Below are positions 6,532-6,965 of a stretch of 64,000 bases of DNA, piece by piece (the first letter of the stretch is position 1; every line of letters begins with the position of its first letter). This DNA comes from an uncultured bacterium. GTDB lineage: Bacteria > Chlamydiota > Chlamydiia > Chlamydiales > SM23-39. Where the stretch lies: positions 1,216,001 to 1,280,000 of the forward strand of contig OY970323.1 of the NCBI GenBank assembly GCA_963716985.1, read 5' to 3'. The notes below the pieces were generated by a model. That model ran no database searches. It was not told the origin of the DNA and worked only from the letters and a program-made list of their open reading frames with translations. The position numbers and the translations under genes are program-made.

Positions 6532-6770
6532 CCTTACAATTCCTTCTCTAAAGGGAGCGGCTTGAGAATCAAGCCTGAAGTTGACCGGCCCCAAGTCTTA
6601 AGGCAACTTGAGACTACGTTAGGAGCGAATATAATATGTAGGCACCTTGGAGTGCCGCCTCAATTCCAAGCTCTGCGATTAGCAGTTAAGCCATTAACAT
6701 GGTAAACCGCTCCATAACTTTGGCGAGGGGAACTTTACCCGGGAAACAGGAGATTGCAGGTAACTGCTAT
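6532..6770 (+). ncRNA. omegaRNA / HEARO RNA scaffold
   Basis: Motif order GGCTTGA-gaa-TCAAGCC, GTTGACC, GCAA-loop hairpin, CTACGTT, GGCACC..., GCTCTGCG, AGTTAA, GGCGAGG, GTAA-loop hairpin; long-range pairing GTTAGGAGCG/CGCTCCATAAC. Confidence 0.8.
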
Positions 6771-6783
6771 TGGAAATTTGCAT

Positions 6784-6935
6784 ATGCAGAAAATATTTGC
6801 ATTGGACAAAAACAGAAAGCCATTCATGCCCTGCTCGGCAACTATCGATACTGCCCAAATATACAGATGGCAGATGGTTACATTTATTCAATCAAGGAAC
6901 CAAACATAAGGAGCGGCGCTTCCTCCCACCTCTAA
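6784..6935 (+). pseudogene. iscB: iscB remnant: PLMP-domain start fused out of frame to the C-terminal tail
   Basis: MQKIFALDKNRKPFMPC (6784-6834) joined at ~6840 to NYRYCPNIQMADGYIY...GASSHL*; RuvC and HNH are absent. Confidence 0.8.
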
Positions 6936-6965
6936 AGGGATGGGTTTTTCGCGCTGTCAAATAGG

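Follow-up and report, generated by a model that had tools for sequence, protein, structure and literature searches.

What is the stretch that separates osmC from adk, at positions 6532-6965 of the window (the whole 64,000-nt piece of an uncultured Chlamydiales genome analyzed here), and is it still active? The genome is a single contig (C1) of 2.07 Mb, of which the window covers 1216001-1280000. The initial annotation described the gap as a miniature IS200/IS605-type IscB element that had lost its nuclease core and had kept its omegaRNA and both ends, and proposed that it works as a stand-alone guide RNA mobilized in trans; it added the caveat that the element may be a decaying relic. Altae-Tran and colleagues reportedly described stand-alone omegaRNAs in 2021. 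Homology searches agreed on the type of element and on the loss of the nuclease core: the gap contains a match to the Rfam HEARO family and codes for residues 1-19 and 412-441 of IscB. The caveat proved a better reading than the active element. We consider it about 80% probable that the stretch is an inert relic, a full element that landed on the adk start, decayed in place, and is now a passive leader of the adk message. The coordinates of its parts and neighbors are given in Table 1.

Table 1. Features in and around the osmC-adk gap, in window positions.
Feature	Position	Strand	Evidence
osmC-like gene, upstream host gene	6080..6514	+	Pfam OsmC, E 1.8e-15; adjoins adk in same-genus genome G001
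Promoter-like TTGATT-18-TACAAT of host adk, not part of the element	6511..6540	+	Scan match 9/12; counterpart in G001
Junction of putative ~30-35-nt deletion	6537..6547	+	G001 empty site, end profile
Remnant of omegaRNA-side end (right end in the convention of Meers et al.); inner hairpin kept, terminal motif lost	6542..6562	+	
omegaRNA (HEARO) scaffold without its first bases	6542..6767	+	Rfam RF02033 match 6537-6738, pair counts
Promoter-like TTGAGA-16-TATAAT inside omegaRNA, pointing at adk	6608..6635	+	11/12 consensus matches
Site of 24-nt deletion; top and one strand of inner omegaRNA helix removed	6693..6694	+	Alignment, contig
iscB 5' remnant, residues 1-19 (PLMP region)	6784..6840	+	tblastn 84% to resident IscB
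iscB 3' remnant, residues 412-441	6840..6935	+	tblastn 83%, E 1e-9 to resident IscB
Complete target-side end (left end) with a slightly degraded hairpin	6904..6965	+	blastn 90-93% to full copies
ATGAA, insertion target/TAM and adk start codon	6966..6970	+	Same start in G001; N-terminal match in relatives
adk, intact	6966..7703	+	Pfam ADK, E 2.8e-51; only adk match in genome

The nuclease gene survives as two stumps, and both peptide fragments match an IscB encoded elsewhere in the same genome. As had been proposed from the letters, an ATG at 6784 reads MQKIFALDKNRKPFMPC, and at ~6840 the similarity jumps into a C-terminal piece of IscB in another frame; the reading opened at 6784 continues in the wrong frame until the stop codon at 6907-6909, 41 aa in all. 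Alignment to either full copy revealed that 1,177 nt are missing between 6839 and 6840, out of frame. An iscB gene with RuvC and HNH domains is absent here, and full genes stand at two other loci. The 1,177-nt deletion junction was spanned by a letter-identical contig of a public run, as was the site of a 24-nt deletion in the omegaRNA. Since such contigs come from public runs of two studies, neither inner deletion is likely to be an assembly error. In global alignment the window copy was 92% identical to both full copies (396 matches, 33 mismatches), which are 97% identical to each other; part of its 8% divergence is common to another copy and predates the insertion. The sequence CTCTAAAGGGA occurs at just two places in the 2.07-Mb genome, both of them at this locus. 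With the element as query, we found no match in phages and one 66-nt match at 80% in plasmids.

The omegaRNA was evaluated with the covariance model RF02033. The match (6537-6738, 66.7 bits, E 1.1e-12) scores below the gathering cut-off of 83, which 9 of the 11 HEARO copies in the genome exceed, and the window holds no gathering-level match. Like the Rfam HEARO family, the copy matches model positions 1-211 and forms the loop-to-3' pseudoknot pairs; unlike it, the copy leaves a 24-position model segment empty and has a shortened first stem. It is a homologous but damaged omegaRNA. The secondary structure drawn in the initial annotation was recovered throughout: the GGCTTGA/TCAAGCC hairpin (6559-6575), the AGTCTTAAG-GCAA-CTTGAGACT hairpin (6594-6615), the CTTGGAGT/AATTCCAAG pairing (6646-6670), the long-range GGAGCG/CGCTCC helix, the GCAG-GTAA-CTGC hairpin (6756-6767), and the possible pseudoknot, in which CCTC (6658-6661) pairs with GAGG (6725-6728) at 4/4 positions. 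The region folds with a z score of -3.3 (0/200 shuffles equally stable), and pair counts showed six core elements, the pseudoknot included, to be fully paired, an observation that speaks against reading the copy as a relic.

Even so, the omegaRNA has not been kept whole, contrary to what had been claimed. Between 6693 and 6694 it lacks 24 nt that are present in the seven other aligned copies, a deletion private to the window copy among the eight, and what is left of the inner helix is 1/4 and 0/4 pairs, versus 3-4/4 in other copies. For another IscB, a truncated nexus hairpin lowered activity and some omegaRNA hairpins could be shortened without loss (PMC13180657); this nexus hairpin may correspond to the helix broken here. 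The first omegaRNA stem retains three of six pairs, and the host letters CAAT could supply four base pairs of it. Changes private to the window copy break pairs in two cases and keep them in two, too few to judge selection on RNA structure.

The omegaRNA-side boundary could be compared with an empty site. In a genome of the same genus (G001; 99% complete, 50 contigs), osmC and adk lie 52 nt apart with no element between them, and no HEARO was found in that assembly. TTGATT-18-TAAAAT stands there at the distance from the osmC stop that TTGATT-18-TACAAT has here. Over the first 27 bases of the intergenic stretch, a gap-free alignment gives 19 identities (osmC coding sequence, 74%). Most simply, then, TACAAT at 6535-6540 would be a host -10 box; MAFFT can alternatively place it under the GTCAAC of the element as point changes, and only 5 of 14 osmC-adk loci, window included, have a -10-like hexamer between -45 and -20 relative to the adk start. 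By this comparison 6515-6541 is adk's own promoter region and the terminus GTCAAC is gone, so that the claim of two intact ends fails, whereas the suspicion that the left (omegaRNA-side) end had degenerated was well founded. A profile of that end (E < 0.01) matches the window copy from model position 10 (6542) only, and the other 13 matches with E < 0.01 (10 in the training set, 3 outside it) start at position 1 or 2. The hairpin of the end keeps 5/5 pairs, with a DNA fold of -2.5 versus -7.1 kcal/mol in a full copy.

Some 25 nt of the host leader in G001, including the native guide and a GAGG Shine-Dalgarno, are not matched by anything in the window. We infer that one deletion of ~30-35 nt took the native guide, the GAGG Shine-Dalgarno, and the GTCAAC terminus, a conclusion drawn from a single relative, 74% identical in DNA. 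The 5' breakpoint is ambiguous, as CAA/CAAT and a pyrimidine tract fit either side, and contigs from four public runs leave 6488-6548, and with it this junction, uncovered. Metagenome contigs yielded no usable closer allele, empty or full, among 45 adk loci (best, 56% identical). Loss of the leader is not a habit of the family, because the host leader reaches the first base of the element at four of six other sites compared with G001 (rpsF, V-ATPase E, a YbbR-domain gene, and a FliH-like gene); the remaining two comparisons were uninformative, the secretin start lying at a contig end and the ruvC offset not lining up.

From these observations we propose the following history. Insertion of such elements by the Y1 transposase TnpA is established. 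In this way a full-length member of the resident IscB family would have entered at N|ATGAA, between the adk leader and its ATG, at a site whose empty form is seen in G001. Three deletions would have shortened it: the 1,177 nt of iscB and the 24 nt of omegaRNA, both visible in the alignments, and the presumed loss across the omegaRNA-side boundary. The product encodes no nuclease and is probably not excisable, since loss of the terminus should block precise excision. A transcript from the adk promoter is predicted to start at ~6547, inside the scaffold, and would therefore carry no guide, so that the one role left to the remnant would be that of a passive leader, 420 nt long, on the adk message. 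The adk gene probably tolerates the insertion because a second in-frame ATG at 7035 stands behind a strong Shine-Dalgarno of its own (7023-7029; duplex -8.9 kcal/mol, -8.8 in G001).

Separately, adk 6966-7037 encodes a 23-residue signal-peptide-like N terminus followed by the ATG at 7035, an arrangement kept in G001, and many relatives are extended in a similar way, frequently with a Met at about position 22-26. The two starts may give exported and cytoplasmic forms.

The decay could instead have been selected, with loss of guide and excision site favored because the element separated the sole adk from its promoter, and the remnant kept as a functional part of the adk 5' region, whether as the internal TTGAGA-16-TATAAT promoter, as a structured leader, or as a guide-less scaffold soaking up IscB. 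We regard this as unlikely. The 5' deletion leaves the host -10 box untouched, ending right after it, and adk is single-copy, but survival alone predicts that deletions spare an essential promoter. Similarly, the helices still pair, although the private changes noted above break and keep pairs equally, and the predicted internal promoter matches consensus at 11/12 positions, yet one full copy has the same letters, which are thus inherited from the family. The genome holds 11 target-side ends without an omegaRNA-side end versus 4 omegaRNA-side-only stubs, which is no significant excess (two-sided binomial, ~0.12). Slightly less probable again is a version in which one short deletion disarmed an IscB element parked on a start codon and the guide-less scaffold on the adk message titrates the two resident IscB proteins; if it were true, that deletion would have removed guide, Shine-Dalgarno, and excision site and yet spared the host promoter.

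We consider it very unlikely that the locus encodes a working stand-alone omegaRNA, for which read-through from osmC would supply a guide from the left flank, a resident IscB would be loaded in trans, and TnpA would move the element. Several of the parts are at hand. A search for full iscB elsewhere in the genome, as the initial annotation had advised, returned two unbroken 442-aa genes (NF040563, 434-438 bits versus a cut-off of 175), one of them at genome positions 1818858-1820186; core helices and pseudoknot pair; and read-through could place new 5' sequence on the scaffold, because osmC is co-oriented and a scan between osmC and adk found no plus-strand terminator-like site. Trans use of stand-alone omegaRNAs is reported (PMC9581776, citing Altae-Tran et al. 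2021), gene-less elements whose omegaRNAs act in trans are described by Meers et al. 2023, and the general idea is already published. The accessible text of Meers et al. 2023 (bioRxiv 10.1101/2023.03.14.532601) further states that IscB omegaRNAs draw their 5' guide from DNA beyond the element and depend on outside transcription, that TnpA cuts at the terminal motif, and that a look-alike site farther away can stand in for a mutated TEM.

Against this stand the lost terminus and the destroyed inner helix, together with the state of the flank. Judged by the single G001 empty site, the native flank that would give a ~13-16-nt 5' guide abutting the terminus is missing, and guides under ~11-13 nt failed to support another IscB (PMC13180657). 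The guide proposed at ~6510-6531 consists of the -35 box and spacer of the adk promoter plus the osmC stop rather than the original flank of the insertion, and no self-target for it was found in the genome within three mismatches plus ATGA. The nearest alternative GTCAA (6425-6429) lies inside osmC, and an excision from that point would cost osmC its 3' end and adk its promoter. Finally, no clearly cognate unbroken tnpA was found in the genome: the two unbroken Y1 transposases are IS200-type, without BLAST similarity to the ends of the family, and the IS605-type tnpA is split in two frames. Guide activity and mobilization in trans are in sum unsupported.

These transposase loci have features of their own. 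The IS605-type element (locus L017:1380-3021), with its tnpA in two frames, carries an unbroken 378-aa TnpB (NF040570, 171 bits), and its end has a hairpin layout like that of the IscB ends. Both IS200-type tnpA copies (C1:757000-757900 and 1969993-1970849) lie directly behind a common 379-nt piece, which we take to resemble the 3' portion of group II introns; the piece occurs at three more places in the genome, and one copy is interrupted by another insert. An unrelated repeat of ~102 nt has some 30 near-identical genome copies, sometimes in tandem, two of which are in the window (e.g., 26596-26798).

The relic belongs to a sizeable family. Of the 11 HEARO matches in the genome, 2 lead into iscB, 6 are gene-less minis, 2 lack the far end, and 1 is the window copy. 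The minis (346-381 nt) have both ends, their omegaRNA is joined to the end via a G-rich hairpin, and five of the six stand before long reading frames. HEARO matches were present in 6 of 40 relatives, where the 22 loci examined comprise 8 that lead into iscB, 9 gene-less minis, and 5 that are cut off or unclear. Gene-less omegaRNA elements are, by these counts, routine in the group. The search for siblings that had been suggested accordingly produced the six minis, though none with the iscB junction of the window copy. It is hardly credible that the copy was a mini when it transposed here and only then decayed: common as minis are (6 here, 9 of the 22 loci in relatives), they use the G-rich hairpin junction and carry no iscB pieces, and no second genomic copy with the junction of the window copy was found.

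Two further lone omegaRNA-side ends without a HEARO match lie at C1:650868 and 235613 (minus strand). The mini at C1:1491365 landed on the overlapping stop/start (ATGA) of two coupled genes, and the upstream frame now continues into the element, where it ends within the hairpin loop.

The inert remnant that we favor can be placed among described systems. It descends from an ISC element and is probably a relic of a known kind. The accessible part of Kapitonov, Makarova and Koonin 2016 (PMC4810608) describes ISC1-1_MA and ISC2-1_MS as ISC transposons with an N|ATGA target. Like these, the window copy is an IscB element without tnpA, with subterminal hairpins at both ends, just upstream of ATGA (it ends at ATGAA, 6966); unlike them, it lacks the nuclease core and one terminus. 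As far as they are described in the accessible text of Meers et al. 2023 (10.1101/2023.03.14.532601), PATE elements likewise encode no protein, have the omegaRNA behind the right end, and depend on the outside for guide and transcription. They keep both ends, in contrast to the window copy, which retains iscB stumps but has lost 24 nt of scaffold, the guide in its flank, and the terminal motif (profile positions 1-9, with the GTCAA-like sequence). Its target-side end, with the subterminal hairpin, is present (6904-6965), though with a weaker DNA fold than in a full copy (-7.5 versus -13.0 kcal/mol) and with a blastn match of 90-93% that covers its 3' part. The element is neither an intact omegaRNA, nor an iscB gene, nor a two-ended PATE.

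The position of the insertion, directly on a start codon, recurs throughout the family. Of 22 target-side ends (E < 0.01), 21 are followed by ATGA; 17 sit at called gene starts, and a further two begin frames of 142 and 79 aa. Among 19 frames opening at or near such ends, 16 match Pfam, including one whose end is weak (E 0.14). Under null models the share of start codons among tolerated sites was 0.27-0.53, giving P values from 1e-6 to 0.019 (strictest null), figures that rest on a simple gene caller (1,602 genes, 82% coding) that is likely to overlook genes and to set some starts wrongly. Each copy is a separate insertion; survival bias may contribute to the excess. In the available part of PMC4810608, the text on the N|ATGA target does not mention ATGA as a start codon. 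The available part of Meers et al. 2023 (10.1101/2023.03.14.532601) gives the TAM TTCAT, which is the reverse complement of ATGAA, and reports a bias of such elements to lie in line with the upstream gene. We found no paper on start-codon landing in the literature searched; the supplementary lists of ends and PATEs in the latter work may bear on it. A second, lone target-side end of the IscB family lies at 14725-14788 of the window (E 6e-11), followed by ATGAAG. The frame that it opens is just 28 aa long, and the transposon end itself overlaps an opposite-strand ORF (14753-15766) at the 3' end of the latter.

One reading is that the element end brings its own ribosome-binding site. At normal spacing this found no support: in the intervals -18..-3 and -20..0, a duplex of -4 kcal/mol is attained by 0 of 19 family ends. 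A Shine-Dalgarno at normal spacing was found at 0 of 19 ends versus 54% of 658 host ATGA starts, and only an interval overlapping the start codon reaches -4 kcal/mol, at 13 of the 19 (68%); the 19 ends share ancestry and are not independent. The genes rpsF, V-ATPase E, ruvC, and adk all stand behind ends without a normally spaced Shine-Dalgarno. Ends of this family may start translation by a non-canonical route.

As a relic, the element matters little beyond illustrating how IscB elements decay. It also indicates that calls of a stand-alone omegaRNA need terminus and flank checked against an empty site, and the six better-kept minis are the proper candidates for trans-acting guides, better ones than the window copy. 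Ends of the family land on start codons and supply no substitute Shine-Dalgarno at normal spacing, which raises the testable question of how essential genes behind them are translated.
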